From positions 23,461 through 58,531 of the forward strand of contig PS015265.1 of NCBI GenBank assembly GCA_048213135.1: a DNA stretch of 35,071 nucleotides, given 5' to 3'. Below, piece after piece: positions 3 to 35,069 of this stretch. Both the position numbers and the translations under genes were made by a program. Within the stretch, counting starts at the first letter, position 1; every line of letters begins with the position of its first letter. The stretch comes from Reclinomonas americana ATCC 50394. Lineage: Eukaryota. The notes under the pieces were generated by a model, which saw nothing but the letters and a program-made list of their open reading frames with translations, was not told the origin of the DNA and made no database searches.

Positions 3-170
3 ACGACTGCCACTGGCGCGTCGACTGCCATCTCTGGCCAGGCTCTGACTGGTGGTCGGGCACGACTGCGTCGAACCCGGCTGTGGCGGTGGGTGCCACC
101 GACACCACGGCGTCTGTGACGGTGGTGAACGGCAACTTCTACCGCTTCTTCCTCAACGCGACCAACTCGA
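3..170 (+). CDS. Fragment of a Thr/Ala/Gly-rich fibronectin type III-like protein, in opposite orientation to the giant FN3 gene
   Basis: Reads TTATGASTAISGQALTGG, then after an apparent 1-nt slip near 55, SGTTASNPAVAVGATDTTASVTVVNGNFYRFFLNATNS. YRFFLNATN matches the FN3 Y.F.V.A.N strand pattern. Codon style resembles the minus-strand gene. Cut by the window start and the gap at 171. Confidence 0.55.
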
Positions 171-718
171 NNNNNNNNNNNNNNNNNNNNNNNNNNNNNN
201 NNNNNNNNNNNNNNNNNNNNNNNNNNNNNNNNNNNNNNNNNNNNNNNNNNNNNNNNNNNNNNNNNNNNNNNNNNNNNNNNNNNNNNNNNNNNNNNNNNNN
301 NNNNNNNNNNNNNNNNNNNNNNNNNNNNNNNNNNNNNNNNNNNNNNNNNNNNNNNNNNNNNNNNNNNNNNNNNNNNNNNNNNNNNNNNNNNNNNNNNNNN
401 NNNNNNNNNNNNNNNNNNNNNNNNNNNNNNNNNNNNNNNNNNNNNNNNNNNNNNNNNNNNNNNNNNNNNNNNNNNNNNNNNNNNNNNNNNNNNNNNNNNN
501 NNNNNNNNNNNNNNNNNNNNNNNNNNNNNNNNNNNNNNNNNNNNNNNNNNNNNNNNNNNNNNNNNNNNNNNNNNNNNNNNNNNNNNNNNNNNNNNNNNNN
601 NNNNNNNNNNNNNNNNNNNNNNNNNNNNNNNNNNNNNNNNNNNNNNNNNNNNNNNNNNNNNNNNNNNNNNNNNNNNNNNNNNNNNNNNNNNNNNNNNNNN
701 NNNNNNNNNNNNNNNNNN

Positions 719-3700: not shown

Positions 3701-6700
3701 GATGGTGTAGCCCTGGCCAGTGGAGGCGTTGGCGGCCGCGAGCGTGCTCAGCGTGTAGCCGCGCCACGTGCCAGACGACACGCTGGCAGCGGTCACAGTG
3801 GTGGGACCAGCGTCGCCAATCACGAACGCGCGGTTGGCGGTGGTGCCGGTGGCGAGGTTGGTCGTCTGCTGCACAGTGAGCGACGTGTTGATGTCCTGGA
3901 AGGTGCTGGCAGTGGCACCGGGGGTCTGCGACGAAATACCGCCCTGGCCGACAAGGTCAGTCGGCAGCTGCAGCCAGATGGTGGCCTGGGTGCTGCCAAT
4001 GTAGTAGATGGCGTTGGAGCCGGCGGTGACGGCCAGAGCGCGGTCTATTTTGAGGGAAGGAAGTAGGAAGTGTGAGCTCCGTCACCAATGGCGAGAAAAT
4101 GAATGACAGAAAAGAGAAAGTGGGCGATGCGCAACTGGTGGCGGTGTAGAAGTTTGGGCCGCCAGCGGTCGCCGAGGCGGATGCAGCGGAGTTGGTGCTG
4201 CCAGCATTCGTGACGGAGAACGAGATCTGCGGGGTGTACTGGCGACCGGGGAGGAGGCCAGAGAGGGTGACCTGCCAGCCGTCGAGGTGACCGGTGGCCA
4301 GCTGGCTGCTGTTGGCGGTGGTGGTGAGGCCCGAGGCGACAGCGACGCCACGCACAAACGCGGAGCCGGTGGCGGTGAAGGCGTAAGCGCTGGCAGCGGA
4401 CGAGGCACTGACGTTGGCCTGCTTGGCCACGTACTTCGCACCGCCGGCGGTCATGTTGATGAGGAAGGTCAGCGAGGTGTCGGTGATGTCGACGACAGTG
4501 ATACTATTCGCGGCCGTGAGGGCATCAGTATTGCTGCCGGCACCTGATTGATTGGCAGCAGTGCGACCACCACTGACAGCAGCGACGGTGCCCTGGAAAG
4601 CAACTCCAGCCGTAAGACCACTCGGAGCTAGGAAAGTGAGGTTCGCATTGCCGACCTCGTAGTCAGCGCCCGCACTGGTCACAGTAATAGACACAGAGCC
4701 ATCGGCGGCCACAAGCACGGAAGCCGTTGCACCAGTGCCGGTACCGCCCAGGAGAGGCACATTGTGGAATGTACTTTCCACACCGTATCCAGACCCGCCA
4801 AAATCGAGTGCAAGACCCGTGATAGCTCCATTCACACCAACAGAGACGACGTCGAAGCGAGCCCACTGCCCCTGTGCTGCCGGAGTCGGGAACTGGGTAT
4901 TGCCTTGGAGATCGGTGCAAGTGCCGTTCAGAAAGACGCTCTCATTCGCGACATAGCCCGTGCCGGCTGCAGTCAAACCAGCATTGCCATTGACACTGCC
5001 AGTACTGCTGAATATAACGCTTACTCGCGCACCATTTCCACTTCCGCCAATCAGCGCACAGCCAATGAAATTCTTCATGTAACCAGTGCCAGTGTTATTT
5101 TGTTTGACCAACGTAGTGATGCCGCCACTGGTGGTTGCATTGGACCGGTCGGCGTTGCTCGTGCAGCAGTACAACGAAGCAGGCGTGCCGCCATTGACCA
5201 ACGTGTACCTGACTCCAAACGTGCTGGTTGCGGAAGGTGCTGCACGAATCGCCACCACAAACTTCGAAGCCGACAACACACTCGTCGTTGTGGTACCGTC
5301 GAGGAACTGGTAGTCACTGACAGTCGCTCCATTGTTGCCAGCCGTCGTGCCCGCGACAAACCCAATCGCACTCATGCCGCCAAGGCTCGTGCCAGATCCG
5401 CCAGTCTGGACCGCCCCTCGATTGGTCGGCGAGCCAGGGTACAGCACCACAAAATTAACTCCGACGGTTATGAAGGCATCAGTGCTGCCGACAAGGCCAG
5501 AGCGGCGATACCACACAGCCCCGCTCGGCGAAGTCACGTTAACCGACGTCACAAAATTGACACCAGCAAGCGTGGCCGTCGCGCCTGCACCGAGGTTGAT
5601 TGCTGACAGATTTACGGTTCCGGCAGCAGTGGCGCTAAACGCCATTGTCCCACTGAGGTCGCTAGCGCTCATCGATACAGTGCCAACGGCGCCAGCGACT
5701 CCGTTACTCGCAAACGAATAGGGACTCGTGCCAAAGCCACCGCTTCCAATTACCGTGGCCGCAGTGATACTCGCCACGCAGTTGATTGTCGTGCTGCCGC
5801 CCACCGACCAGCAGCCCACAAGAACCGGCGCAGTACCGAGCGTCACGTTGACACCAGTGGTTGCAGACAGCGTGATCTCCCGCTGCGTTGAACCGTCAAG
5901 CGCTGCGGTCCCCTCCCCGTTGGCATTCATCGCCTGCACGCGGATACGATACCGACCAATGTTGGTCGTCACGAGGCCGGAAATCAATACGTGGCCACCG
6001 GTCACACGTCCAAATTCATAGTCGGTCACCGGAGAGCCACTAAACGATGCGCCGAACGCATTGTAAAGTACAGTGCCGCCGCCGCCCGCCGCAGAGTTCG
6101 ACGCCGCAGCCTCAACCTTCCAGCCGGTGATGCTGCCGCCCGTAATGTAAGGCGAGTCCCACCTTATCAGAGCGCCGTCGGAGGCCGCCGCCACCACCGT
6201 CGGGGTCAATATCTTGCCCGGAGACTGCTTGCCGTCCTGCGTGGTCACCGTCACAGTCTGCGAACAATGGAACAAGTCAGAGAGAGGGAGGGCTAAACAA
6301 ACACCTGGAGACAAACAAAGATACTACTATAGATGCCCAAGACGCAACAGTGCTCCACGGGCCAAAGCCCCACTGGCCCACAGCGCGAGCGCGCACCACG
6401 TAGCCAGTGCTCGGCTGAAGCAGGCTGGACGAGGCAGTGGCGCCAGTGCCCGACACCACGCACGACTGAGTGGAGAACGGGCCACTCGTGAACGGAACAA
6501 TCGCCGCATTGGCGTTGTTGCCATTGGTGGTCTCAGTGTAGAAGGTCACCGGGGTCCAGGCGGTCAGCGAGCTGCCAGACGAGCTGCGGATCTGCACCTG
6601 GAAGAAGGGAGTCTGCAGCTGGTTGAAGTTGGCAACGTTGCCGGAGCCAGTGGCGCCAGTCTGACCGAGCTTGATCGGCGGGGAGAACGACAGCACAAAC

Positions 6701-8080
6701 GAGGTGGCCGACGTGTAGCTGATGGCCAGGTTGGTCGGCTGGCGCGGGGTGCCGCCGAGCGGCACCGTCACGACCTGCGACGAGGTGCGGACGCCCTCAC
6801 CGTACGCGTTGACAGCGTAGGCCTGCGGGTGGGGAAAAGAGAGGAGATGAGTGGGGGGATTAGGAGGGAAGGAAGGGAGGAGAAGGGACGCAACAGCGAT
6901 GGTGTACTGCACGCCCTCCTGGATGTTCTGGTCAAAGTAACGCAGAATCATGCCGTAGCAGCCGGCGCCGCCAGAGGAAGGGCCGCCGTTGGCCGCAATG
7001 GCGTTGACCGACGAGCACTGTTGGAGGAGATGGGAGTGAGCAGAGAAAGAGGAGAGGAGAGAGGAGAGGGAGAGGCGGAGCGAGAAGACGCAACAGTGTA
7101 CTTGGTGGTGCCACCAGTGCTGGCCACGTCGACACCGAACTCAGACGGCGGCGCGTTGCCCTGGTTGACGGGGCTGGTCCAGTTGACCCAGATGGCCGAC
7201 TGTGAGCCAGTTTGGGCAGAAGTGTCGAGGTCTGCATTCATTATGAGAGTGAGACGGTGCAGTGACAGAAGCAAGAGGAGGAGGAGGAGGAGGAGGGAGG
7301 GGGGGAGGAGGAGGAGGAGGAGGAGGAGGAGAGGAGGAGGAGGAGGAGGAGGAGGACGAGAGNNNNNNNNNNNNNNNNNNNNAGGAGGAGGAGGAGGAGG
7401 AGGAGGGAGGTGGGTGAAAGAAGATGAAAAAGGAGAAGAGAAATTGAAAAACAAGTACACACAGAGAGAGAGACACACACACACAGACACACACACACGA
7501 AGACGCACCGTCTTCACCCACGGCCTTGATGATCTGGAACTCCTCTGGTGCGGCAGAGCTGCCGGGGGCGAATGCGGTTGACTGGGCGTCTGCGCATTGC
7601 GTGGAAAAAAAGAGTTAAGTCGTGGTAAAAATCGAACAAACTCACACAAACTCGAACGTTGTGAGAGGAGAGAACACGCTTGCACACCCCGTTCAGTCTA
7701 CAATTGTGCGTGTGAGAGCGTGCGTGTGTGCGTGTATGCGTGCGCGCTGCAACCCAACGTGAAAGTTGTGCTGAACATGTGTGAAAGATAGTAAGTAACT
7801 GCACTTGAGCACAGAAGACAAGATGGTTTTCGTCCCGGCGGCAGAGAGAGTGTACGTGTCGCGCAGGAGGTGACTTCTCATTCTATCACACACGGACTCT
7901 GAGGAAACGAACAAACGGCTCACCAGCAGCGAGGACTATGCTGAACAACACGAGAAAACTTGCCACAAGAAGCAGCGCGGCGGACGCCGAGGGAACTGCT
8001 GCTGCTGCAGTCGAACAACTCATGTTTCTCGGACGAGCTATCGAGGAAAGAAGCGTTGCCGTGCGGTAGATGGTAGCCAT
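719..8080 (-). CDS. Giant secreted/cell-surface fibronectin type III repeat protein (>2,080 aa, 3' end lost in gap)
   Basis: Phase-consistent exons 8080-7924, 7589-7509, 7231-7095, 7017-6895, 6822-6349, 6257-4136, 4044-2053, 1882-719(gap). N-terminal hydrophobic stretch (AALLLVASFLVLFSIVLAA-DAQ) looks like a signal peptide. Many FN3 signatures, e.g. PRQPTNLAISYTSATSFVLSFSPP...LQPSTGYVVRARAVGQWGFGPWS, PNPPTSLVVTQYGLTNIFLQWTIP...LTANTSYTYQVYAT, IWLSWGQP...GLTDATNYFVDVRGINGIG. Very T/S/A/G-rich. Confidence 0.88.
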
Positions 8081-8444: not shown

Positions 8445-9082
8445 TCGCCACACAATGACTTCAGCCTCCTCGAGGCAGCACCAGTTCCGGCAGGAAGTAA
8501 GAATCGCGAAATTGTTCCTCCTCCTCCTCCTCCTCCTCTCCACTCCCCACTCGCAGAGCGTGCCATATCATGTCGAGCGAGACCACACGGCGTCGACCAC
8601 ACACACACACACCGTAACATCACCGGCACTCGCAACGTGTTGACCATCGGGTGCGATAGCCACAGAAAAAAACTGCAGCATCGTGTCCCTCCAATCGCTG
8701 CACTTCTGCTCCACTCGCCAGCGACCACACTCGCACCGTCTTGTCATCGCTGCCACTCACAACGTGCTGACCGTCGGGCATGACGGCGACAACATGCACC
8801 CACGAGGCAATGTCCCTCCAATCGTCGCACCTCCTTCCAACTCTCTGTGGACCACACTCGCACAGTCTTGTCACCACCCCAGTGAGAATGAACTGACCGT
8901 CGGGAGTGACGGCAACACAAAACACTTGATGTGTAACAGTCGCAAGTGTTCTCCAGTCGCCAGCGACCACACGTGCACTGGATTGTCCTCTCTCCGCTCA
9001 CAATGTGCTGGCCGTCGGGAGTGACGGTGACTATCGACACCGATGCCGAGTGTTGGAAGACGTGGGTGCAGCGGAAGGTCAT
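8445..9082 (-). pseudogene. Degenerate WD40 array copy 1 (internal deletion of repeats, frameshifts, eroded C-terminal domain)
   Basis: Starts MTFRCTHVFQH like the other copies. WD motifs (VTPDGQHIVSG, KTVRVWSTESW, VMPDGQHVVSGSDDKTVRVWSLASG) are split across three frames. Only about 4 repeats remain. The tail keeps only remnants (WSTPCGLAR, EEAEVIV) and lacks CDPQLCL. Confidence 0.8.
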
Positions 9083-9527
9083 CGCAAGGACAAGGAGAGG
9101 AGAACGAGAAGGAGAGGAGAAGGGGAGGGGAGAGAGAGAGGAGAGAGAGAGAGAAGGTGAATGAGAGGAGAAGGAGAGGAGAAGGAGAGGAGGTGGCTGT
9201 GGAGAGAGCAAAGGGAAAGCAGAGGAGTGAGAGCAATGGGTACAGATTAAGGAACTGTAGAACAAGAGATGCCTGCACCGGGAGGAGACGGGGTTGAGAG
9301 GAGAGAGCAAGCGCGCGCGAGTGCGGAAAAATTGTCGCCTTGTCCTTTCGGCGTCCTCACTTCACGCTGTCGCTTGCCAGCGTTGAGTTCAAGATAGTCA
9401 ACAGTGCACAAAGAATATCATGGGCGATGAAAACAGCAACAGCAACAACTTTATATGCAGCTCAAGGACGCTCATATAAGTCGACGTCTCTTCAACACCT
9501 GCCTCCCTCTCGATCAGCTTTCGCGCC

Positions 9528-10610
9528 TCACAGACAAAGCTGTGGGTCGCAGAAGCACCGATACACAATGGCCTCTGCCTCCTCAACCATGAAACACCGC
9601 AGCACGAGTTCCGGCAGGCAGCGCGAATCCCGTTCCTCCTCCTCTTCTCCTGCTACTTGCATCACCTCCTGCACGCTGCGCATCGCCGAGCGCGCAGCAT
9701 CCAATTCCTGTCGAGCAAGACCACATGGCGTGGACCACAGGCGCACCGTATTGTCGTAGCCCGCACTCGCAACGTGTTGACCGTCGGGTGCGATTGCCAG
9801 AGAAAAAACTGCAGCATCGTGTCCCTCCAATCGCTGCACTTCTTGCTCGCCACTCGCCAGTGACCACACGCGCACTGTGCTGTCTTCGCCGCCGCTCACA
9901 ATGTGCCGACCATCGTGTGTGATGGCGACAGACCACACCGGACCAGTGTGTCCCAGAAATCGACGCGTCTCCTGGCCACTCGCCACGGACCACAAACGCA
10001 CAATGCCGTCCGTACTCGCACTCGCAACGTGACGGCCGTCGGGAGTCACAGCGACCGAGAACACATCACCAGTGCAGCCAACCATCTGCCGCACTTCTTC
10101 TCCACTCGCCAGCGACCACACCCGTACAGTCTTGGCATCACCTCCGCTCACAATGTGCTGACCATCCGCAGTGACGGCCACTGATCTCACCATCTTCGTG
10201 TGTCCATCGAACCGCTGCTCTTCTACTCCACTCACCAGTGACCACACTCTCACTGTTTTGTCATCGCTGCCACTCACAGCGTACTGCCCATCGGGAGTGC
10301 CGGCGACTGCGCACACACGCCCAGTGTGCCCCTTCAGTTGTCGCACCTCCATCCAGCTCTCCGTGGACCACACTCGCACAGTCTTATCCCCACTCGCACT
10401 GAGAATGTGCTGGCCGTCAGGAGTGACGACCAGCGACATCACATAGCGTGTGTGTCCCTCCAGTCGGCGCACTTCTTCGCCAGTCGCCAGTGACCACACA
10501 TGCACTGCTCTGTCATTGCCTCCGCTCACAAGGTGCTGGCCATCGGGAGTGACGGTGACGGACCACACTGGTCCCGTGTGCTTGAAGACGCGGGTGCAGC
10601 GGAAGGTCAT
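9528..10610 (-). CDS. WD40 repeat protein (7 repeats) with conserved C-terminal ...CLPELVLRCF...CDPQLCL domain, copy 2 (360 aa)
   Basis: Intronless ORF from ATG of MTFRCTRVF. Seven GH...V.SVAVTPDG..VSG..D.TVRVWS repeats. The longer ORF call upstream runs through a pyrimidine tract and is probably non-coding. Confidence 0.9.
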   Translation of the reverse strand: MTFRCTRVFKHTGPVWSVTVTPDGQHLVSGGNDRAVHVWSLATGEEVRRLEGHTRYVMSLVVTPDGQHILSASGDKTVRVWSTESWMEVRQLKGHTGRVCAVAGTPDGQYAVSGSDDKTVRVWSLVSGVEEQRFDGHTKMVRSVAVTADGQHIVSGGDAKTVRVWSLASGEEVRQMVGCTGDVFSVAVTPDGRHVASASTDGIVRLWSVASGQETRRFLGHTGPVWSVAITHDGRHIVSGGEDSTVRVWSLASGEQEVQRLEGHDAAVFSLAIAPDGQHVASAGYDNTVRLWSTPCGLARQELDAARSAMRSVQEVMQVAGEEEEERDSRCLPELVLRCFMVEEAEAIVYRCFCDPQLCL

Positions 10611-11037
10611 CGAGAGGGGAAGGAGAAGGGGAAGCAGAGGAGAGGGGAAGCAGAGGAGAGGAGAAGGAGAAGGAGAGGAGAAGGGGAGGAGAAGGGTAGA
10701 GAGAGAGAAGGTGAGGGAGAGAGAGCAAAGGGAAAGCAGAGGAGTGAGAGCAATGGGTACTGATGGAGGAACTGTAGAACAAGAGATGCCTACACCGGGA
10801 GGAGACGGGGTTGAGAGGAGAGAGCAAGCACGTGCGAGTGCGGAAAAATTGTTGAGTTGTCCTTTCAGCGTCCTCACGCTTGCCAGCGTTGAGTTCAAGA
10901 TAGTCAGCAGTGCACAAGAACATCATGGGCATTGAAAACAGCAACAGCAACTACAAGTTTACATGCAGCTCAAGCGGACGCTCAAATACTTCGACGTCTC
11001 TTCAACACCTGCCTCTCTCTCCGTCAGTTGCCACAAT

Positions 11038-13125
11038 TCACAAACACAGCTGAGGGTCGCAGTGGCACCGATACACAATCACCTCTGCCTCCTCAACCAT
11101 GAAACACCGCATCACTAGTTCAGGCAGGCAGCGCGAATCCAGTTCTTCCTCCACTTGCATCTCCTGTACGCTGCGCATCGCCGAGCGCGCCACATCCACT
11201 TCCAGCTGAGCGAGACCGCACGGCGTCGACCAGACACGCACCAAATTGTCTGCACCTCCACTCACAATGTGTTGACCGCCCGGGGAAACAGCGACAGACC
11301 GAACACTCTCGTGTTCCTCCAGCCGCTGCGNNNNNNNNNNNNNNNNNNNNNNNNNNNNNNNNNNNNNNNNNNNNNNNNNNNNNNNNNNNNNNNNNNNNNN
11401 NNNNNNNNNNNNNNNNNNNNNNNNNNNNNNNNNNNNNNNNNNNNNNNNNNNNNNNNNNNNNNNNNNCCTCGTCGCCGCTCGCCAGTGACCACACTCGCAC
11501 TGTCGTGTCTTGGCTGCCACTCACACCGTGCCGACTGTCGGGAGTGACGGCGACAGACCACACCGAGCGAGTGTGTCCCTCAAATCGCCGCACTTCGTCG
11601 CCACTGGCCAGCGACCACAACCGCACTGTTGTGTCCCGGCTGCCACTGAGAACGTGTCGATTGTCGAGAGTGACAGCGACCGAGTACACCTCTGCAGTGT
11701 GCCCCTCCATCTGTCTCACTTGCACGCCACTCGCCAGTGACCACACTCGCACTCGGCAATCGCCACCCCCACTCACGACATGTTGGCCGTCGGGAGTGAC
11801 GGCGACAGCGTACACTCTTCCGTAGTGCTCCTGCAATCGTCGCACATGCCCTTCGCCCTCGAGACGAGAGCGCACTCGCAGAGTGCAGTCGTCGCTGCCA
11901 CTCACAAACGTGTCGACCGTCGGGAGTGACGGCGACTGAATTCACATAATCAGCATGTCCCTTCAACCTCCGCACTTGCTCGCCACTCGCCAGTGACCAC
12001 ACGCGCACTGTGCCGTTGGCGCTCCCAGTGACAACGTGCTGACCGTCGGGAGTGACAGCAAGGCACCACACTGTGTTATTGTGTCCTCCCTCCAATCGGC
12101 GAACTTCCTCGCCAGTTGCCAGTGATCTCACTCGCACTGCCGTTCCGTTGCCGTTGACAATGTGCTGGCCGTCGGGAGTGAAGGCGACGCACAGTGCCCG
12201 ACCGGTGTGTNNNNNNNNNNNNNNNNNNNNNNNNNNNNNNNNNNNNNNNNNNNNNNNNNNNNNNNNNNNNNNNNNNNNNNNNNNNNNNNNNNNNNNNNNN
12301 NNNNNNNNNNNNNNNNNNNNNNNNNNNNNNNNNNNNNNNNNNNNNNNNNNNNNNNNNNNNNNNNNNNNNNNNNNNNNNNNNNNNNNNNNNNNNNNNNNNN
12401 NNNNNNNNNNNNNNNNNNNNNNNNNNNNNNNNNNNNNNNNNNNNNNNNNNNNNNNNNNNNNNNNNNNNNNNNNNNNNNNNNNNNNNNNNNNNNNNNNNNN
12501 NNNNNNNNNNNNNNNNNNNNNNNNNNNNNNNNNNNNNNNNNNNNNNNNNNNNNNNNNNNNNNNNNNNNNNNNNNNNNNNNNNNNNNNNNNNNNNNNNNNN
12601 NNNNNNNNNNNNNNNNNNNNNNNNNNNNNNNNNNNNNNNNNNNNNNNNNNNNNNNNNNNNNNNNNNNNNNNNNNNNNNNNNNNNNNNNNNNNNNNNNNNN
12701 NNNNNNNNNNNNNNNNNNNNNNNNNNNNNNNNNNNNNNNNNNNNNNNNNNNNNNNNNNNNNNNNNNNNNNNNNNNNNNNNNNNNNNNNNNNNNNNNNNNN
12801 NNNNNNNNNNNNNNNNNNNNNNNNNNNNNNNNNNNNNNNNNNNNNNNNNNNNNNNNNNNNNNNNNNNNNNNNNNNNNNNNNNNNNNNNNNNNNNNNNNNN
12901 NNNNNNNNNNNNNNNNNNNNNNNNNNNNNNNNNNNNNNNNNNNNNNNNNNNNNNNNNNNNNNNNNNNNNNNNNNNNNNNNNNNNNNNNNNNNNNNNNNNN
13001 NNNNNNNNNNNNNNNNNNNNNNNNNNNNNNNNNNNNNNNNNNNNNNNNNNNNNNNNNNNNNNNNNNNNNNNNNNNNNNNNNNNNNNNNNNNNNNNNGCGA
13101 AAACGCGGGTGCAGCGGAAGGTCAT
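11038..13125 (-). CDS. WD40 repeat protein copy 3 (interrupted by two assembly gaps and one frameshift; may be a pseudogene)
   Basis: ATG (MTFRCTRVF) at 13125, gap 12211-13096, repeats 1-6 at 11467-12210, gap 11331-11466, then repeat 7 and the tail ending CHCDPQLCL*. An extra A at about 11907 (ctcacaaacgtg versus ctcacaacgtg in copy 5) shifts the frame. Confidence 0.75.
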
Positions 13126-13677
13126 CGCGAGGGGAAGGAGGAAAAGGAGAAGGGGAGGAGAAGGAGGAGGAGAAGGGGAAGGAGAAGGGGAAGGAGAAGG
13201 AGGGCAGGAGGGAGGAGAAGGAGAGGAGAAGGGGAGGAGAAGGGGAGGAGAAGGGGAGGAGAAGGAGGAGGAGAAGGGGAGGAGAAGGAGGGGGAAGGGG
13301 AGGAGAAGGAGAAGGATAGGAGAAGGAGAGGGGAAGGAGCGGGAAGGAGAGGAGAAGGAGAGGAGAAGGGGAGGAGAAGGAGAGAGCAAAGGGAATGCTG
13401 AGGAGTGCGAGCAAAGGGTACACAGATGGAGGAACTGTAGAACAAGAGATGCCTGCACCGGGAGGAGACGGGGTTGAGTGGCGAAAAAATATGTTGTCCT
13501 TTCGTCCTCACTTCACGCTCTTGCTTGCCAGCGCTGGGTTCAAGATAGTTAGCAGTGCACAAGAACATCATGGACAGAATACAACAATCACGCTGCAAGT
13601 TTACTCGCAACACATGAGCGCTCAACCACGTCGACGTTTTGCTCCGAACATGCTTCCCTCTCTCTCAGTCAGTTGCC

Positions 13678-14745
13678 TCACAGGCACAACTGTGGGTCGC
13701 AGAAGCACCGATACACAATGGCCTCTGCCTCCTCAACCACGAAACACCGCAACACGAGTTCCGGAAGGCAGCGTGAGTCAGCTTCCTCGCCCCCCTCTTG
13801 CATCTCCTGCACGCTGCGCATCGCCAAGCGCGCCACATCCGACTCCTGTCGAGCGAGACCACACGGTGTCGACCACACACACACCGTAACATCACCCGCA
13901 CTCGCAACGTGTTGACCATCGGGTGCGATAGCCACAGAAAAAACTGCAGCATCGTGTCCCTCCAATCGCTGCACTTCTTGCTCGCCACTCGCCAGTGACC
14001 ACACGCGCACTGTGCTGTCTTCGCCACCGCTCACAATGTGCCGACCATCGTGTGTGATGGCGACAGACCACACCGGACCAGTGTGTCCCAGAAATCGACG
14101 CGTCTCCTGGCCACTCGCCACGGACCACAGGCGCACTATGCCGTCCGTACTCGCACTCGCAACGTGCCGGCCGTCGGGAGTCACAGCGACCGAGATAACC
14201 TCGCCAGTGCTGCCAACCATCTGCCGCACTTCTTCTCCACTCGCCATGGACCACACCCGCACAGTCTTGTCATCACCTCCGCTCACAATGTGCCGATCAT
14301 CCACAGTGACGGCCACTGATCTCACCTTCCAAGTGTGCCCCACCAACCGCAGCACTTCTTCTCCGCTCGCCAGCGACCACACTCTCACCGTTTTGTCATC
14401 GCTCCCACTCACAACGCGCTGACCGTCGGACGTGATTGCAACAGCGTGCACCCACGAGGCATGCCCCTTTAGTTGTCGCACCTCCATCCAGCTCTCCGTG
14501 GACCACACTCGCACAGTCTTGTCCTCACTCCCACTTATTACATGCTTACCATCGGGAGCAACAGCCACCGACAATACTTGTTGTGTGTGTCCCTCCAGTT
14601 GCTGCATCTCTTCGCCAGTCGCCAGTGACCACACGCGCACGGGCTTGTCCTCAGCTCCACTCACCACGTGCTGGCCATTGGGAGTGACGGTGACGGACCA
14701 CACACAACCAGTGTGCTCAAAGATGTGGATGCAGCGGAAGGTCAT
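13678..14745 (-). CDS. WD40 repeat protein copy 4 (355 aa)
   Basis: Intronless ORF MTFRCIHIFEH..., seven WD40 repeats, tail DSRCLPELVLRCFVVEEAEAIVYRCFCDPQLCL. Repeats 5-7 are nearly identical to copy 2. Confidence 0.9.
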   Translation of the reverse strand: MTFRCIHIFEHTGCVWSVTVTPNGQHVVSGAEDKPVRVWSLATGEEMQQLEGHTQQVLSVAVAPDGKHVISGSEDKTVRVWSTESWMEVRQLKGHASWVHAVAITSDGQRVVSGSDDKTVRVWSLASGEEVLRLVGHTWKVRSVAVTVDDRHIVSGGDDKTVRVWSMASGEEVRQMVGSTGEVISVAVTPDGRHVASASTDGIVRLWSVASGQETRRFLGHTGPVWSVAITHDGRHIVSGGEDSTVRVWSLASGEQEVQRLEGHDAAVFSVAIAPDGQHVASAGDVTVCVWSTPCGLARQESDVARLAMRSVQEMQEGGEEADSRCLPELVLRCFVVEEAEAIVYRCFCDPQLCL

Positions 14746-15255
14746 CGCGAGGGGAAGGAGGGGAGAAGGGGAAGGAGGAAAAGGAGTAGGAGAGAGAGAA
14801 AAGGAGGGGAGAAGGAGAGGAGAAGGAGGGGAAGGAGAGCAGAAGGGGAAGGAGAAGGGGAGGAGAAGGGGAGGAGAAGGAGGGGGAAGGGAGGAGAAGG
14901 AGGGGGAAAGGGGAGGAGAAAGCGAAGGAGGGGAGAAGGAGAGGAGACGGAGAGAGCAAAGGGGATGCACAGGAGTGAGAGCAAAAGGTACACAGGGGAG
15001 GAACTGTTGGGCAAAGAGATGACTGCAGTGGGAGGGACGGAGGGAGAGAGACAATGCTGTGTGTGAGTGGATGGAGTGCGGAAAATTGACTGTGTTGTCC
15101 TCTCAACGTCCTCACTTGGCGCACTTGAGCTCGCATAGCAGCGTTGGGACCAAGGTTCTTCGATCATGCAGTGAGCGTTAAATTAGCCGCAACAACAGCT
15201 TTACATGCAACTCAAAAAAACCTTAAAAACGTCGATGTCTCCTTTATACCGCGCC

Positions 15256-16374
15256 TCACAGACACAGCTGAGGGTCGCAGAGGCACTGATACAAAACGAC
15301 CTCTGCCTCCTCGACAATGAAGCACCGCAGCACCAGTTCCGGCAGACAGTGAGAACCGCGACCGGGCTCTGCATCCTCCCCTTTCTCCTCCTCCACCTCC
15401 TCCTCTTCTTCTTCTCCACTCCCCACTTGCATCTTCCGCACAATGCGCCGCACTGAGCGTGCCATATCCAACTCCTGCCGAGCGAGACCATACGGCGTCG
15501 ACCACACGCGCACTGTGTTATCTGTTCCTGCGCTCACAATGTGTTGACCGCCGAGAGCAACAGCGACACACCGAACACTCCAAGCGTGTCCCCTCAACCG
15601 CTGCATCTCATCGCCGCTTGCCAATGACCACACGCGCACCGTGCTGTCTTGGCTGCCGCTCACAATGTGCCGACCATCGGGAGTGACGGCAACAGACCAC
15701 ACCGGACCCGTGTGTCCCTGAAACCGCCGCACTTCGTCGCCACTGGCCACGGACCACAGCCGCACTGTCTTGTCTCGGCCTCCGCTGACAATGTGCTGGC
15801 CGTCGGGAGTAACAGCGACCGAGTTCACCTCTCCTGTGTGCCCTACGAGCTCCAGCTGCCGATATTTTTCTCTCGTATCCAGCGACAGCACTCGCACGGT
15901 CCTGTCATCACCTGCGCTGACAATGTGCTGCCTGTCGGGAGTAACGGCAAGAGTGTGCACCACTCCAGAGTGTTCCTCCAGCCGCCGCACTTGCGTGCAG
16001 TTCGCGAGAGACCACACTCGCACAGTCAAGTCCCGACTGGCACTCACAACGTGTCGACAGTCAGCGGTGACAGCGAGCGAGTGCACGTCATCAGTGTGCC
16101 CCTTCATCCATCGCACCTGTTCGCCTGTTGTCAGCGACCACACGCGCACTGTGCTGCCGCTGCCGCTCACGACTTGCCGACCATTGGGAGTGACAGCAAG
16201 ACACCACACCGTCTCACTGTGTCCTCCTATCAGCCGCACATCGTCTCCAGTCGCCAGAGACCTCACTCGCACTGCGCTGCCGTCACCATTGACAACGTGC
16301 TTTCCGTCGGGAGTGAAGGCGACGCACAATGCTGGTCTTGTGTGTTCGAAGACGCGGGTGCAGAGGAAAGCCAT
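15256..16374 (-). CDS. WD40 repeat protein copy 5 (372 aa)
   Basis: Intronless ORF MAFLCTRVFEH..., seven repeats, Glu-rich linker, tail CLPELVLRCFIVEEAEVVLYQCLCDPQLCL. Closest to copy 3. Confidence 0.9.
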   Translation of the reverse strand: MAFLCTRVFEHTRPALCVAFTPDGKHVVNGDGSAVRVRSLATGDDVRLIGGHSETVWCLAVTPNGRQVVSGSGSTVRVWSLTTGEQVRWMKGHTDDVHSLAVTADCRHVVSASRDLTVRVWSLANCTQVRRLEEHSGVVHTLAVTPDRQHIVSAGDDRTVRVLSLDTREKYRQLELVGHTGEVNSVAVTPDGQHIVSGGRDKTVRLWSVASGDEVRRFQGHTGPVWSVAVTPDGRHIVSGSQDSTVRVWSLASGDEMQRLRGHAWSVRCVAVALGGQHIVSAGTDNTVRVWSTPYGLARQELDMARSVRRIVRKMQVGSGEEEEEEVEEEKGEDAEPGRGSHCLPELVLRCFIVEEAEVVLYQCLCDPQLCL

Positions 16375-16877
16375 CGAGAGGAGAAGAAGAACGAGAGGAG
16401 AAGGAGAATGAGGAAGAAGGAGAAGGAGAAGAGAAGGAGAAGGGGAGGAGAAGGGGAGGAGAAGGGGAGGAGAAGGGGAGGAGAAGGGGAGGAGAAGGGG
16501 AGGAGAAGGAGGAGGAGAAGGGAGGAGAAGGAGGAGGAGAAGGGAGGAGAAGGGAGGAGAAGGGGAGGAGAAGCAGAGCACGCGATGACCGCAGTGGGAG
16601 GAATGGAGGGAGAGAGTGAACGAGAGAAGATGCTGTGGTGCGCTGGATGGGAACAGAAGGAGAGTGTGCGGAAAAATTGAGTTGTCCTCTGCAAATCATC
16701 ACTTCGCGAGCTCGCTTGTCAGCGTTGGGGCCAAGGTTGCACGAGACGATTACAGAATAAGCGATACCAAAACCACAACACCAACTTTACATGCAACTCA
16801 AGGACATAGAAACGTCGACGTTCTCCTTCCATGCCGCTCTCTCGCTCTCTCTCTTTCTCTCTGTCAGTTGCCAAAAC

Positions 16878-17966
16878 TCATAGGCACAACTGCGGGTCGC
16901 ACAGGCACCGATACACAATCACCTCTGCCTCCTCGACCATAAAACACCGCAGCACCATTTCCGGAAGGCAGCGCGAATCCCGTTCCTCCTCCGAATCCTC
17001 GTCTCCTGTTCCTTGCATCATCTCCTGCACGTTGCGCATCGCCAAGCGCGCCACCTCCAACTCCAGTCGAGCGAGTCCATACGGCGTCGACCACAAGCGC
17101 ACCGTATTATCGGCACCCGCACTCACAATGTGCTGACCGTCGCGGGTGACGGCAACAGCGTGCACCGGCGCAGTGTGTCCCTCCAGCCGCTGCAACTCCA
17201 TTCCACTCGCCACAGACCACACCCGCACCGTCTTGTCTTGGCTGCCGCTCACAATGAGCTGACTGCTGGGAACATTGATGACGGCGACAGACGTCACCCA
17301 CTGCGAGTGTGCCAGCTGTTGCACTTCTTCCCCACTCGCCACGGACCACAGCCGCACGGTTTTGTCTTCGCTGGCACTCACAATGTGGTGGCCATCGGCA
17401 GTGACGGCGACCGATCGCACTCCGCGCAGGTGACCCTCGAGCCGTAGCACTTCCTCCCCACTCGACAGTGACCACACGCGCACCGTCTCATCCCAACTCC
17501 CGCTGATAATGTCTTGCCCGTTGGGCGAAAGCACCGCGCACCACACCTCCTCCGTGTGCCCCCTCAACCGCCGCACCTCCTCACCGCTCACCAGCGACCA
17601 CACTCGCACCGTCTTGTCGAAGCCGACACTGACAACGTGCTGGGCATCGGGCGCAATGGCGACAGCGTTCACCCACCACGCGTGTCCCTCCAGCCGCTGC
17701 ACCTCTGCACCACTCAACACGCACCACAATCGCACGGTTTTGTCTTGACCGCCGCTCACCACATGCAGCCCATCGGGAGTAAAGGCCACACTGCGCACGA
17801 TCGACGTGTGTCCCTCCAACCGCTGCACTTCTTCGCCACTCGCCAGTGACCACACGCGCACTGTCATGTCGGAACCTCCGCTCGCCACGTGCTGGCCGTC
17901 GGGAGCAAAGGCGACGGACCACACTGATGCGGTGTGGTCAAAGGTGCGGGCAAAGCGGAAAATCAT
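16878..17966 (-). CDS. WD40 repeat protein copy 6 (362 aa, most divergent)
   Basis: Intronless ORF MIFRFARTFDH..., seven repeats, tail DSRCLPEMVLRCFMVEEAEVIVYRCLCDPQLCL. Confidence 0.9.
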   Translation of the reverse strand: MIFRFARTFDHTASVWSVAFAPDGQHVASGGSDMTVRVWSLASGEEVQRLEGHTSIVRSVAFTPDGLHVVSGGQDKTVRLWCVLSGAEVQRLEGHAWWVNAVAIAPDAQHVVSVGFDKTVRVWSLVSGEEVRRLRGHTEEVWCAVLSPNGQDIISGSWDETVRVWSLSSGEEVLRLEGHLRGVRSVAVTADGHHIVSASEDKTVRLWSVASGEEVQQLAHSQWVTSVAVINVPSSQLIVSGSQDKTVRVWSVASGMELQRLEGHTAPVHAVAVTRDGQHIVSAGADNTVRLWSTPYGLARLELEVARLAMRNVQEMMQGTGDEDSEEERDSRCLPEMVLRCFMVEEAEVIVYRCLCDPQLCL

Positions 17967-18720
17967 GGGGTGAAGGGAGGAGAAGGGAGGAGAAGGGGGA
18001 AGGGGAGATGGGGAGAAGGGAAGGGAGAAGGGGAGAAGGGGGAGAAGGGGGAAGGGGAGATGGGAGAAGGGGGGAAGGGGGAAGGGGAGATGGGAGAAGG
18101 GAGAAGCGATTACAGAGAAGGGGGAAGAGGAAACTGTCTGCGTTGCTGCCACAAGAGCGCAGTGAGGAGGAAAGAGAATGGCGGTGTCTGTGCGCGTGTC
18201 TCACAAGGGGAAAAGCACGTGCGATGCGCTCAGTGCGCGCGTGCGCGAAGGGTGATCACGACAAGAGTTCGGCGGAAGTTGTGTCGTTGTGCTTCACTAG
18301 TTGCCTTGCTAGCATTGTTGTTGAACGACGCACGCCCACAACAAAGACAAAAACAAAATAGCGAGAGGTGACTGTCAGCTTGCGGATAGGAAAATTGTTT
18401 GTTGTCCTTCTTATGTCCTCACTTCTCGCTCTCTGTTGCTGCCATTGTTGTGGTCCTGTGCAAGACGACTGCAGTGACAAGCACGACAACAGCAGCAACA
18501 TATTGTGCGCCAAATTTCTTCGACGTCGACGTTCTCTTTCTTTCTTTCGTGCATGTTTTCGTTAATGCAAGCTTCGACTCTTGTGTCTCGTTGTTGCTGT
18601 GTTGTGCATGCACGGCTGCTGTTGCGTCAACTGAGTGACTGTGAGAGGTTTGCAGGACAAAGACAGAGTCCGAACAAAACTCACTCACAGTCAGAAAGAG
18701 AAGACCACCTTTCCTCAACA

Positions 18721-19191
18721 ATGAGACGCAGAGTTGCGTGCGCCACTTGTGTGTGTGTCTCGCCTCGCATGCACAGTTCGCCATGCGCGCGAAAAAAAGT
18801 GCGGAGAATTTGACACATTAAGTATGTGTGTGTGTGTGTGTGCTCTTTGTGTGTTTGTTTGTGTGTGTGCAGCCGGTGTATTCGACTATTGCAGTGTGCT
18901 GTGTGATATCAGCGGGTCTTATTGTGGCTGCGCTGGTGAGTGCATTGATGATCAATACATGCCTTGAATCACAGGGGACTTGCTGCTCTCGACTCTCTCT
19001 TGCATGCTCACTGTGCGCTCTTACACACACTCAGTCACACTAGCTCTTTCATACTCTCACTGGCCCCTTCTCCTTCTGATTGCGCCAACTCACTCAATGC
19101 TCTCCCTCCGGCATTCTCAGTCTCTCTTTCCTCGCTCTTCTCTCTGTCTTTCGCATTCTCTCTGTCTTTCGCATTCTCTCTGTCTCCCTCA

Positions 19192-19222
<31 letters not shown>

Positions 19223-22200
19223 TGTGTCATGACCTCCTTCCTTCTCCTTTCATCTCTCAATCACTCCTCTGGTCGTCTGTCTCTCACGCACAGCCTTCTT
19301 TCTTCCTTCCCTGCTCACTCGCTTTCACGCACCTTCTCCTTCCGTTTTTGCCAACTCACTCAATGCTCTCCCTCCCATACTCTCACTCTCACTCTCTCAT
19401 CCCTCGCTCTTCTCTCTCTCTCTCTCTCTCTCTCATGACCTCCTTTCTTCTCCCTTCATCTCTCACTCGCTCCTCTGGTCGGCTGTCTCTCGCGCACAGC
19501 CTTCTTTCCTCCTTCCCTGCTCACTCACTCTCACTCGCCCCTTCTCTTTCCGTTTTCGCCAACTCGCTCAATGCACTCCCTCTCTAGATCTCTCGCTCTC
19601 CTCTCTCTCCTTGTCTCTCTTCTCCTTCATCTCTCACTCACTCCTCTGGTCGGCTGTCTCTCGCGCAGCCTTCCCTGCTCACTCGCTCCCTCCCTTTTTC
19701 TCACTCACTGGTTGCACTCCTTCTGCTCTCACTCAATGCACTCCCTCTGACACGCTCACCCTCTCTTTCTCTCAGTCTCTGTCGCGCTGGTGCTCATTCA
19801 CCACGTACCTTGCATCTCTCGCTCGCCCCGTGTGACTGCGCTCACTCGCACAACCTCCTGCCCTCCTTCCCTCACTCGCTCATTCACCGCATCCAGTTTT
19901 CTCCCTTGAGATCTCACTCCATCACTCCCGTTATTCTGCTTTCGCTCGCACAACCCTCTTCCTTCCGTCCTTCCCCACTCACTCCCTCACACGCTCTCCT
20001 TCTTTCCCATTTCTCCTTCGCTTCACTCTTTCTCTTCCCTTTTCCTCCTCCCTCTCCCCTCACCCTGCCCCCTCACCCTCCCCCAGGTGCTGAAGGACTG
20101 GTTTGGCGTGGAGAACCAAGGTGTGTGCGCATCACCTGCCTCGCCACTCACTGCACGTCGCCCACTCACCTCCTTCCCCTTTTTGCCGCGCAGTCATTGT
20201 GGCGCAGAACACGCAGGACCCCGACGTGACCTATCACGCCATCTTCAACGTGGCCATTGATCCGTTCACTGTCGACTGGAAGGGTAAGGCATCCGGGCTA
20301 GTCGCGCCCTTACTCCTTGCTCACCCAGCTGACGACTGCGCTCCTCGCAGTGGAGCTGTTCTCGTACAAGGGCACGCAGGTGACGAGCGAGGTGCAGTCG
20401 GTGTTCTACGAAGGGTCATTGTCGGGAGCGTGTGGTTTGTGGCTTGTATGTGTCGAGGCGTCGGATCGTGCGGTTTGAAACGTGCTGCCGCAGATGTGCA
20501 GCTGATTGTGGACGAGCTGCATGGCAACGATCATTGCGATCTGGTGTCGAAGTTTGGCAAGGGTGTGGCGATTATCGCGGTGGCGGCAGGTGAAAAGGGG
20601 GGAAGGGAAAGGGGGAAGGGGGGAAGAGGGAGAAGGGGAGGGGGAGGTGGGAAAGGGAGGAAGAGAGAGAGGGAGAAAGAGAGAGAGATAGAAGGTAGGG
20701 GAGATAGATAGACTGATATCTATGGAGGTGAAGGAGGATAATTCGAGACCATTGCCTCTGCGCTATGGAGTTCAGAGAGCGAGAGATTTAGAGGGAGAAG
20801 GTAGAAAGGCAGCACGGTTCCACACGCCTCGCAAAAGCCCTGCGATCTGTAGGTGAGCGGAAAGAGACAGAAGAGAGAAGCGATTGACCGACGACACACC
20901 AGTGGCGGTGTTGGCCGAGAGAAGCGAGGATATGTGAAGGAGAACGTTTCGAGTTCATCGTCTCTGAGTCGTGGTGTCGGGAGAGCGAGAGGAACTCGAA
21001 GGCAAGGAAGGTAGAGCTTAATACGAAAGTAGATGAGTTCTCCAACCTTCGCATGCAGATGGAGAGATTGAGGAAAGTCTCAGGTTTCTCTGTCCCTCTT
21101 CGTACCTGAATCACAGAGTTGAGAATGAGAGAAATTGGCGAGCGAAACAAGAAGGGTGATAAGGGTAGTCGGAGCGATGACGATAGAGCGAGCAATATAC
21201 GAGAATAATAATGGTTACTGAAGTTCATTCAGTAAGAGAGAATGAGAGAGAGAGAGAGAGATGTAGGAGAAAGGATGAGGGAGCGATGTTGCTTTCCTGA
21301 ACAAACGGGGGCTTTTCACTTGCTTTGCTTACAATCAAAAGANNNNNNNNNNNNNNNNNNNNNNNNNNNNNNNNNNNNNNNNNNNNNNNNNNNNNNNNNN
21401 NNNNNNNNNNNNNNNNNNNNNNNNNNNNNNNNNNNNNNNNNNNNNNNNNNNNNNNNNNNNNNNNNNNNNNNNNNNNNNNNNNNNNNNNNNNNNNNNNNNN
21501 NNNNNNNNNNNNNNNNNNNNNNNNNNNNNNNNNNNNNNNNNNNNNNNNNNNNNNNNNNNNNNNNNNNNNNNNNNNNNNNNNNNNNNNNNNNNNNNNNNNN
21601 NNNNNNNNNNNNNNNNNNNNNNNNNNNNNNNNNNNNNNNNNNNNNNNNNNNNNNNNNNNNNNNNNNNNNNNNNNNNNNNNNNNNNNNNNNNNNNNNNNNN
21701 NNNNNNNNNNNNNNNNNNNNNNNNNNNNNNNNNNNNNNNNNNNNNNNNNNNNNNNNNNNNNNNNNNNNNNNNNNNNNNNNNNNNNNNNNNNNNNNNNNNN
21801 NNNNNNNNNNNNNNNNNNNNNNNNNNNNNNNNNNNNNNNNNNNNNNNNNNNNNNNNNNNNNNNNNNNNNNNNNNNNNNNNNNNNNNNNNNNNNNNNNNNN
21901 NNNNNNNNNNNNNNNNNNNNNNNNNNNNNNNNNNNNNNNNNNNNNNNNNNNNNNNNNNNNNNNNNNNNNNNNNNNNNNNNNNNNNNNNNNNNNNNNNNNN
22001 NNNNNNNNNNNNNNNNNNNNNNNNNNNNNNNNNNNNNNNNNNNNNNNNNNNNNNNNNNNNNNNNNNNNNNNNNNNNNNNNNNNNNNNNNNNNNNNNNNNN
22101 NNNNNNNNNNNNNNNNNNNNNNNNNNNNNNNNNNNNNNNNNNNNNNNNNNNNNNNNNNNNNNNNNNNNNNNNNNNNNNNNNNNNNNNNNNNNNNNNNNNN

Positions 22201-26331: not shown

Positions 26332-26639
26332 TTACGACGGCCCAGCTGGTCCTGCTCCTGCTATTGACACTGCTGTTGCCTCGCTCAGACGCCTCAATTC
26401 GTCCAGGACATACGATGCTGACACTCGAGTTGCTTGTGGTCTCTGCATCACACGCGCGTAATGAGCAGCCACCTCTCCCGGCGACACCATCTACTTCGCA
26501 ACCCAGCACTGGCGAATCAAATTGCGAATGTCTTTCGGCACGCTTGCTCGCACACTGTCATCGTCAAGATCGGCATCCACTCCGCCGATTGTGCATCTCA
26601 AGCTTGCCTCCTGACCAGGTATCGCATGTACGCCGCGAT
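26332..26639 (-). CDS. C-terminal remnant of a protein kinase domain (subdomains X-XI only), probably the tail of the ankyrin gene
   Basis: Exons 26639-26503 and 26442-26332, joined by a 60-nt GTTGCG...AG intron, give ...VPKDIRNLIRQCW/RPQATRVSASYVLDELRRLS. This is the P...LI..CW...R.SA..VL..L ending typical of TKL-type kinases. No upstream catalytic motifs are present. Confidence 0.6.
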
Positions 26640-27372
26640 CTGTGACACGCCGCCAATACAGAGAGCGGCATGAGATCCCACGTGGTGGTGGTGATAGTGA
26701 TGATGGTGGTGGAGGGGATTGTCGATAAGATGTTGTGTTGGAAGCTGTTGCTCCGCAGCGAAAAGACGGTCGAGCAACTCGGCCACTTGCTGATGGCCAT
26801 GATCGCGTGCCATCTGAGCCGCCGTCTTGCCCTTCTCATCGACCATGGGAATAAGACTGGGGCAACGAGTGGCGAGGAGCCGCACAATATCTCCGTGGCC
26901 TTTCTCAGCAGCCACATGCAGTGCAGTGCGCTGATCGTGCGCTGCCGCAGCTTGCCTCATCTCCAGTGAACAGCGTCGCTCATCGGCCAGCAACCACTCC
27001 ACCACGTGCACATGCCCTTCGCGGGCAGCCACCATCAGCGGCGTCCAGCCACCAAAGGCGACCATCTGTACGAGTTGCGACCCGACACCACTCTCCTCCC
27101 ACAAGTACTCCAACACCGCGAGGTGACCACAAGCAGCGGCGCAGTAATATGCCGAGCTGCCATACGAATCCATCTCCTCTCGCTTCAGCAGAGCGCGTGT
27201 GCCCTCACGCGACACCAACTCGCGCAGTGCCTTCACATCGCCATTCCACGCCATCTCCCATGCATTGTTCCTCTGCTGTTGTCTGTCGACGAGCACGAGT
27301 CGTCAAAGAGTGAGAGAGAGAGAGAAGAGGATGACAGGCGACAAACCTGTCACCGCCCTGCGCTGCGCCCAT
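26598..27372 (-). CDS. Ankyrin repeat protein (about 4-5 repeats), possible N-myristoylation; true 3' end uncertain
   Basis: Exon 1 27372-27347 (MGAAQGGDR), intron GTTTGT...AG of 64 nt, exon 2 from 27282. Ankyrin motifs GSSAYYCAAACGHLAVLEYL, GWTPLMVAAREGHVHVVEWLL, RTALHVAAEKGHGDIVRLL, GKTAAQMARDHGHQQVAELL. Unspliced stop at 26598, but it may splice onto the kinase remnant. Confidence 0.85.

Positions 27373-30579: not shown

Positions 30580-35069
<4,490 letters not shown>

Follow-up and report, generated by a model that had tools for sequence, protein, structure and literature searches.

Hypervariable WD40 propellers have been described in the HNWD/NWD family of Podospora anserina (HET-E, HET-D as well as HET-R), which are NACHT-WD members of the NOD-like receptors (NLRs). 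In HET-E, as given in the portion of Paoletti et al. 2007 (PMC1805685) drawn on here, codons 7 and 9 flank the conserved codon 8 in the d-a loop, codons 25 and 27 flank codon 26 in the b-c turn, and all of these sites lie on the top of the propeller. The internal conservation of HNWD repeats is high, at ~85% or more (excerpt of PMC4986451). The portion of Hu et al. 2017 (PMC5587647) used here states that prokaryotes, fungi and protists hold many repetitive WD40 proteins, and that diverse hotspot sites on a conserved frame are a general trait of the highly repetitive ones. We investigated a WD40 gene array at 8445-17966 of a 35,071-nucleotide stretch of the Reclinomonas americana genome (the window, in which all positions are counted), which is a gapped eukaryotic scaffold with seven runs of N. 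The array is composed of at least six tandem paralogs, all on the minus strand. What is new in this locus is a stand-alone small propeller, its organization as a tandem gene cluster, and a private and highly constrained C-terminal motif.

The array and the HNWD family were compared feature by feature. Both are built from 42-residue WD units with a uniform frame, both have two hypervariable position pairs, one in the d-a loop and one in the b-c turn, that each flank a conserved residue, and in both the genes form a multigene family that includes pseudogenes and whose members exchange sequence. Unlike the HNWD proteins, the array proteins carry no HET or NACHT domain among the Pfam matches listed, and each forms one closed seven-blade propeller, whereas the repeat number varies in HNWD. 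The internal identity of the array repeats is ~56-62%, against ~85% in HNWD (PMC4986451, excerpt), and the array shows in-register conversion with repeat DNA that is 20-30% diverged, in contrast to the free repeat shuffling of HNWD. Moreover, the C-terminal motif of the array is absent from the HNWD family, and positive selection at the HET-E-type codons is not robustly shown in the array. The array thus resembles the WD domains of HET-E/HNWD in part and lies outside that family.

The members of the array, from the 5' end of the cluster in the direction of transcription, are as follows.

16878-17966 (minus strand): gene A, intact open reading frame (ORF) of 362 amino acids, with seven WD40 blades, helix, acidic linker and C-terminal motif
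15256-16374 (minus strand): gene B, intact ORF of 372 amino acids, seven blades
13678-14745 (minus strand): gene C, intact ORF of 355 amino acids, seven blades
13098-13125 (minus strand): start codon and first nine codons beyond an 886-N run, belonging to a further copy or to the start of gene D
11038-12210 (minus strand): body of gene D, read in three frames, its units taken by coordinates
9528-10610 (minus strand): gene E, intact ORF of 360 amino acids, the copy used for structure prediction
~8445-9082 (minus strand): copy F, a decayed pseudogene with many frame changes, four blades left and a degenerate tail

Gene A is the most divergent copy, with 62% identity to E, and C and E are the closest paralogs at 83% identity. 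The acidic linker of gene B exceeds that of the other copies by 13 residues. Gene D, whose nearest relative among the copies is B, has lost its 5' end in the 886-N run (12211-13096), is interrupted by a 136-N run at 11331-11466, and is frameshifted near 11906-11909, where a single base is inserted into a run of three; its tail is intact. The spacer upstream of the start fragment at 13098-13125 aligns with the spacers of E and F. When the protein of gene E was searched against the window by tblastn, none of the 34 high-scoring segment pairs fell outside 8476-17966, indicating no further copy there. Because two N-runs lie within the array, the copy number (six, or seven or more) and the integrity of gene D are uncertain. 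The coding regions of the WD40 genes are intron-free. The organism has spliceosomal introns, as short exons with GT..AG introns of 60-90 nucleotides were read by eye at 20087-20600 (plus strand). The original prediction, made from the letters alone, had described intact, frameshifted and deleted copies side by side, and this is what we found, with A, B, C and E intact, D frameshifted, and F deleted and decayed.

With two N-runs and a homopolymer frameshift in the locus, mis-assembled reads of one or two genes could be suspected, or a single conserved housekeeping WD40 gene behind them. We consider this extremely improbable, since the copies differ by 17-39% in protein sequence, their synonymous distances range from 0.29 to 0.95, and their spacers are distinct. 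In a whole-protein homology search, 5739 of 8000 scored candidates had E values of at most 0.001. The search was dominated by generic WD40 proteins, the best 120 that were listed being 30-54% identical with no orthologue recognised among them, and none of these 120 shared the C-terminal tail. An Atlas search with the whole protein likewise returned generic WD40 clusters only. The Gcp1-3 proteins of jakobids, described as Pex7-like conserved WD40 orthologues of protists with a miT2SS in the part of bioRxiv 10.1101/790865 consulted, were considered as counterparts from a similar organism; no link emerged, and the Pfam and homology listings give no pointer to Pex7. No description of the array's family was found in the literature by searches that were not aimed at the tail motif.

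The architecture of the proteins was determined by domain search and structure prediction. Pfam recognised seven WD40 stretches in A, C and E, and six in B. Among the best 25 of the 50-55 matched families per intact protein, only WD40 and beta-propeller families were present, with no NACHT, other nucleoside triphosphatase (NTPase) or effector domain. An AlphaFold2 model of E, built with four paralogs as the alignment, gave a closed seven-blade propeller in which 277 of 360 residues had a predicted local distance difference test score (pLDDT) of at least 90, followed by a helix at residues 295-322. There is no N-terminal extension: the ORFs open on the strand that closes the propeller, and residue 4 of the E model already lies in a strand. 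Each protein runs from one closed seven-blade propeller through a helix and an acidic linker, which varies in length, to a C-terminal motif of 32 residues. The original prediction of a distinct C-terminal module in place of a NACHT domain agrees with this arrangement, within the best 25 Pfam matches per protein.

The best Foldseek matches in the PDB were regular propellers, namely 5yzv (PkwA of Thermomonospora), 7big/7bie (designer WRAP-T) and 2ymu (a "highly repetitive propeller"), at 37-40% identity, with WDR5 and LIS1 next. The repetitive WD40 proteins PkwA (5yzv) and that of Nostoc (2ymu) are thus the closest in structure, and like the array they combine near-consensus blades with diverse hotspots. 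Repetitive WD40 proteins often have many repeats, several domains, or a fused kinase or STAND module, whereas the array encodes small single propellers with a private tail. Hu et al. define "moderately repetitive" WD40 proteins by an internal identity of >=0.4 and <0.7 (PMC5587647, in the portion used here). The array proteins fit this class at ~0.56, a value obtained as mean pairwise identity and not by the exact procedure of that paper.

To locate the variability, 35 repeat units were cut from genes A-E (those of D by coordinates) and aligned over 42 columns. Five columns (19, 20, 22, 40 and 42) had entropies of 2.9-3.7 bits and 10-16 residue types, and every other column was at or below 2.62 bits. 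Columns 19, 20 and 22 come after the Gly-His pair, and the conserved Asp stands between columns 40 and 42. When the blades of one protein were compared (75 pairs), identity was 61.8% at scaffold columns, 9.9% at the five variable columns and ~56% overall; between paralogs at the same blade index (70 pairs), it was 66.9% at scaffold and 21.3% at variable columns. The combination of variable residues was distinct in 34 of the 35 units, C6 and E6 being the only pair to share one. By the DSSP strands of the E model, the variable residues occupy the B-C turn and strand A together with the positions directly before that strand. With the conserved Asp as the reference point, columns 20, 22, 40 and 42 match HET-E codons 7, 9, 25 and 27 as given in the portion of PMC1805685 used here, and for this reason we regard them as coinciding with the HET-E sites.

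These results bear out what the original prediction had said of the blades. The scaffold is highly uniform (~62% identity between blades versus ~10% at the five variable columns), and the variability sits after Gly-His and around the Asp turn, that is, in the D-A loop and first strand and in the B-C turn. Each of the 14 strings of five residues listed after Gly-His is present, in units E2-E4, C2-C4, B2, B3, A3-A5 and D2-D4. The claimed identity with the fungal sites applies to four of the five columns. The residues used at the variable sites were also skewed: compared with the expectation from base composition, Trp was enriched 3.5-fold, Asn 3.4-fold and Lys 3.7-fold, and Val and Leu were depleted to 0.15-fold and 0.33-fold (n=173; shared ancestry not corrected for). 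Such skewed residue use favours a used, exposed surface over pure drift.

The most constrained segment of the proteins is the 32-residue motif at the C-terminus, which was located by tail alignment and pairwise omega (the ratio of non-synonymous to synonymous change).

9531-9626 (minus strand): 32-codon C-terminal motif of gene E
11041-11136 (minus strand): same motif, gene D
13681-13776 (minus strand): same motif, gene C
15259-15354 (minus strand): same motif, gene B
16881-16976 (minus strand): same motif, gene A

Over the 10 pairs among A-E, omega was 0.08-0.27 in these last 32 codons, compared with 0.26-0.82 in the helix ahead of the motif. The motif of the frameshifted gene D was at 0.08-0.21. 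A profile of the five tails searched against 1.84 billion representative proteins recovered two relatives only, P0121 and P0122. P0121 (E 1.2e-23) is a fragment of 116 amino acids, the product of an R. americana expressed sequence tag in EukProt, in which the tail motif comes after the end of a very similar WD blade. P0122 (E 2.2e-4) is a protein of 381 amino acids whose propeller blades are divergent and non-uniform and which ends in the tail motif; the motif thus also occurs on another, older type of propeller. When the profile was extended to seven sequences (the five window copies, P0121 and P0122), the only match among longer proteins was P0122, at E 1.7e-22. Thirteen tail positions are invariant across the seven sequences. 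Only the window copies have the three terminal Cys residues, which neither P0121 nor P0122 shares. P0121, the one relative with a species name, points to the jakobids and suggests a placement of the window in that part of the eukaryotic tree. The presence of the motif on the divergent P0122 and on the expressed P0121 indicates that the motif is older than the array. Other searches with the tail gave no further relatives: a word-based search returned 20 candidates, none at E <=1, an Atlas feature search found no usable neighbour, and 19 matches to the tail pattern in JGI metagenome contigs included none that was confirmed.

Several candidate roles of the tail were considered and set aside. A C-terminal prenylation signal or a type 1 peroxisomal targeting signal (PTS1) was rejected, as the ends misfit the motifs of such signals and the last residues are not kept in P0121 and P0122. 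The tail as a pseudo-ligand of its own top face was also rejected, given that the faces differ between copies that have a constant tail, and that the AlphaFold2 model leaves the tail undocked. A test of the tail as a homodimer scored 0.01 (mark 0.32) and counts neither for nor against.

We propose, with about even confidence, that the array encodes a family of adaptors restricted to one lineage, in which the recognition face varies and the docking tail is constant. Each paralog would be a small adaptor-type protein in which the seven-blade propeller serves as the variable recognition module, and the helix and flexible acidic linker would join it to the constant 32-residue motif. The five variable positions would form a ligand site on the top face, and with a variable site there each paralog may bind a different partner. 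The conserved tail would dock all paralogs onto one shared machine, in the way of ubiquitin-ligase substrate receptors. The cluster itself is in turnover, through duplication and gene conversion as well as through decay and deletion between repeats. This proposal builds on the fold, on the purifying selection acting on the scaffold and on the stronger constraint of the tail, all of which were demonstrated here, and it adds putative top-face ligands and a putative docking partner. We know of almost no ligands of variable-hotspot WD40 propellers outside the fungal NLRs. The variable propeller stands alone in the cluster, and its tail has an omega of ~0.1 and belongs to no known family. The two parts offer two experimental handles, the tail for the shared partner and the paralog-specific faces for the ligands.

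Among cullin-RING ubiquitin ligases, the WD40 substrate receptors WSB1 and WSB2 carry a C-terminal SOCS box, and the F-box of other such receptors is normally N-terminal to the WD40 domain. The array follows the same logic, in that a WD40 face that varies is paired with a short and constant box for docking, and the WSB box is C-terminal as well. However, no SOCS box was matched by Pfam in three tails at E up to 10 or in the four whole proteins at E up to 0.1, and no F-box was matched in tails or whole proteins, the array module being C-terminal and not N-terminal. The BC-box consensus fits the tail only partly, and the tail has no segment resembling a Cul5 box. Because the SOCS and F-box profile tests were negative, the likeness to ubiquitin-ligase receptors is one of logic and not of membership.

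We further investigated how selection acts on the variable face. By the method of Nei and Gojobori, with blades compared at the same index, the synonymous distance (dS) of the scaffold was 0.29 for C-E, 0.62 for B-D and 0.71-0.95 for the other pairs, and the scaffold ratio of non-synonymous to synonymous distance (dN/dS) was ~0.25-0.3. In the distant pairs, the non-synonymous proportion at the variable columns was 0.56-0.69, close to saturation. Codon models were then fitted with likelihood code written for this analysis, on an IQ-TREE tree (GY+F3X4) of the 35 units over 42 columns. Omega under the one-ratio model M0 was 0.35. The model with a selected class (M2a, log-likelihood -2841.97) was preferred to the nearly neutral model (M1a, -2848.96) with a likelihood ratio test (LRT) statistic of 13.98 (p 0.0009). 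It placed 6.6% of sites at omega 2.55, with columns 20, 40 and 19 assigned to the selected class at posteriors of 1.00, 0.91 and 0.86, respectively. In site tests resembling fixed effects likelihood (FEL), with the synonymous rate alpha fixed at its mean, the non-synonymous rate beta was 3.16 at column 20 (p 8e-5), 1.94 at column 40 (p 0.023) and 1.93 at column 19 (p 0.045), and columns 22 and 42 were at 1.0. The likelihood results here and below come from fixed trees and short alignments, and recombination between repeats can inflate M2a.

A second design compared paralogs on the tree ((C,E),(B,D),A) over 294 codons, with branch lengths in synonymous units. The class of 28 codons defined a priori as HET-E-equivalent had an omega of 1.71 (LRT against 1 = 11.7, p 0.0006), and across designs the variable class was at 1.52-1.85 relative to the mean synonymous rate (p 0.0006-0.0013), with the scaffold at 0.27-0.29. 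Per column, omega exceeded 1 (1.35-2.82) at exactly the five variable columns and was at most 0.71 at the remaining 37. Other exposed loops were constrained, with omega 0.18-0.49 at columns 29-33 and 0.19-0.69 at columns 2-6.

When FEL-like tests were given a site-specific synonymous rate, beta was significantly greater than alpha at no site, the ratio being 1.27 at column 20 (p 0.70) and 1.90 at column 40 (p 0.28). A set of results weighs against the adaptor reading. When the variable class was given its own synonymous rate, alpha rose to 2.2-2.4, above 1 (p 0.003-0.005), and beta/alpha fell to 0.69-0.83, not different from 1 (p 0.26-0.56). These two values imply that the variable codons may be unconstrained, or may be hot spots of mutation or conversion, instead of being under selection for diversity. 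The excess of apparently synonymous change may stem from multi-step codon replacements, or from local hypermutation or conversion patches. On the side of the tail, no Pfam family reached the cut-off when three tails were searched at E up to 10 (a DFF-C match in one of the three was below threshold and taken as chance). The tail gave four matches among PDB sequences, all with E >=0.84 and taken as chance, and residues 323-360 of the E model, which include the tail stretch, had pLDDT <50.

The rate results bear directly on a second explanation, relaxed constraint, under which the propeller is a stable scaffold, or binds through its bottom, side or tail, and the five positions drift in an array that has grown by ordinary tandem duplication with unselected diversity. 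We consider this possible, though less probable than the adaptor reading. The beta/alpha of 0.69-0.83 and the site-specific FEL-like tests are what it predicts. So is the closest pair, C-E, where the non-synonymous proportion was 0.275 at variable columns against a scaffold synonymous proportion of 0.243, giving an omega near 1. Hotspot variability is moreover general in highly repetitive WD40 proteins (PMC5587647, in the portion used here). Arguing the other way, omega reached or exceeded 1 only at the canonical hotspot columns while other exposed loops were constrained, and Trp was enriched and aliphatic residues depleted at the variable sites. The preference for M2a over M1a (p 0.0009) and the elevation of the a-priori class above the mean synonymous rate (p 0.0006-0.0013) point in the same direction.

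Together, the tests indicated that purifying selection does not hold the five positions, whose rate of change, between blades and between paralogs, equals or exceeds that of silent sites. Positive selection at the variable face is suggestive and not robust, as no rate above the local neutral one was demonstrated. For the diversifying selection advanced in the original prediction, the outcome depends on the synonymous rate used: M2a exceeded M1a and the class omega exceeded 1 against the mean synonymous rate, but the signal was lost with class- or site-specific rates. If the variable face is under diversifying selection, a eukaryotic lineage that has been little studied would have a repertoire of receptors built on a new chassis. 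If it is not, the array would be a case of hotspot variability without positive selection, and would caution against reading such patterns as immunity. The main value of the locus lies in its orphan tail motif and in a clean test of whether hotspot variability means selection.

The turnover of the array was examined by comparing the copies with each other. Between C and E, one tract of low divergence was identified.

13900-14325 (minus strand): low-divergence tract of C versus E, nucleotides 421-846 from the ATG, blades 4-7

Mismatches between C and E numbered 20 in 426 nucleotides inside this tract versus 124 in 639 outside, and 0 of 200 permutations reached the observed maximum chi-square. 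The tract is probably the result of gene conversion between paralogs that are separated by gene D. In the decayed copy F, nucleotides 1-400 match C 1-411 at 79% with 15 gap openings, and F 292-512 matches C 681-899 at 88%. About 385 nucleotides, corresponding to three repeats or blades, have been lost, apparently through recombination between repeats. This loss is the sole change in repeat number, as seven units in conserved order are present in all four intact genes. The units show positional orthology: each C unit is nearest to its E counterpart at that index, and D1 and D6 pair with B1 and B6. Other repeat units differ by 20-30% in scaffold DNA, and there is no sign of free repeat shuffling. 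The array evolves by birth and death with occasional in-register conversion; the birth-and-death family of the original prediction is recognisable in the decay of F with its inter-repeat deletion, in the C-E conversion tract and in the tandem paralogs. Separately, divergence across paralogs is lowest for blade 6 (B6, C6, D6 and E6), which is also the nearest DNA neighbour of many blades, such as A2, A4, A5, A6, B2, D2 and D3. Blade 6 may be closest to the ancestral unit, or may be a donor in intragenic conversion.

This mode of turnover is also what the repertoire for non-self recognition put forward in the original prediction might show, be it in immunity or in allorecognition. Here the propellers would sense foreign molecules and the tail would trigger a response, making the array an NLR-independent analogue of HET-E/HET-D. 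We judge this unlikely. It draws on the identity of the hypervariable positions with those of HET-E, on the distinct combinations in 34 of 35 units, on the tandem cluster with birth and death and inter-paralog conversion, and on the omega above 1 against the gene-wide synonymous rate. It is opposed by the Pfam matches listed, which include no NACHT, other NTPase or effector domain, and by the repeat number, which is seven in every one of the four intact copies without variation. The internal identity is far from that of HNWD repeats (~56-62% versus ~85%; PMC4986451, excerpt), the repeat DNA is 20-30% diverged without free shuffling, and only six or seven copies were seen. A broader form of this idea is that a deep-branching, jakobid-like protist holds an NLR-independent recognition repertoire whose top faces are diversified by selection and conversion and whose tail leads to a common signalling or degradation machine; to this we also attach little confidence. 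If a recognition repertoire were true, it would represent innate non-self sensing, or the sensing of prey or viruses, on a chassis unlike that of fungal, plant or animal NLRs.

Upstream of the genes, a CT-rich microsatellite tract of 100-250 nucleotides precedes each ATG on the coding strand. The tracts were identified by Tandem Repeats Finder, from the sequence and by spacer alignment.

16375-16578: GA-rich microsatellite tract, which reads as CT-rich on the coding strand, immediately upstream of the gene B ATG
9086-9192: similar tract, another copy
10613-10744: similar tract, another copy
13139-13384: similar tract, another copy
14749-14965: similar tract, another copy
17979-18106: similar tract, another copy

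The inter-gene spacers have in common a conserved block of ~150 nucleotides followed by the CT-rich tract up to the ATG.

9083-9527: spacer with conserved block
10611-11037: spacer with conserved block
13126-13677: spacer with conserved block
14746-15255: spacer with conserved block
16375-16877: spacer with conserved block

The block may contain the promoter or 5' untranslated region of the unit. The spacer of gene A (17967-18520) hardly aligns with the others. Spacer divergence was considered as a neutral yardstick and left out of all conclusions, as alignments of the CT-rich spacers are poor and the distances from them disagree, with 0.38 between the C and B spacers versus a B-C synonymous distance of 0.76.

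Outside the array, the window contains several other coding and repetitive features.

153-6951 (minus strand): very large gene, or fragments of one, rich in Thr/Ser/Gly/Ala and with fibronectin type III (fn3) domains
19040-19700 (plus strand): CT-rich low-complexity block
25561-26067 (plus strand): exon with a FAM221 domain (E 1.8e-11)
26598-27254 (minus strand): ankyrin-repeat protein of 218 amino acids with a His-rich stretch
34113-34420 (plus strand): one protein kinase exon

The fn3 match was at E 5.7e-13 in 719-1928, with weaker matches in 1967-3874 and 6277-6951. CT-rich introns and two N-runs apparently break up the gene, and its predicted product looks like a giant surface or adhesion protein. 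In the low-complexity block, which is flanked by (GT)n and (CT)n microsatellites and has a GC skew of -0.59, a unit of ~180-190 nucleotides recurs about three times. The kinase exon covers profile positions 134-203 of 263, and domains here are cut into exons.

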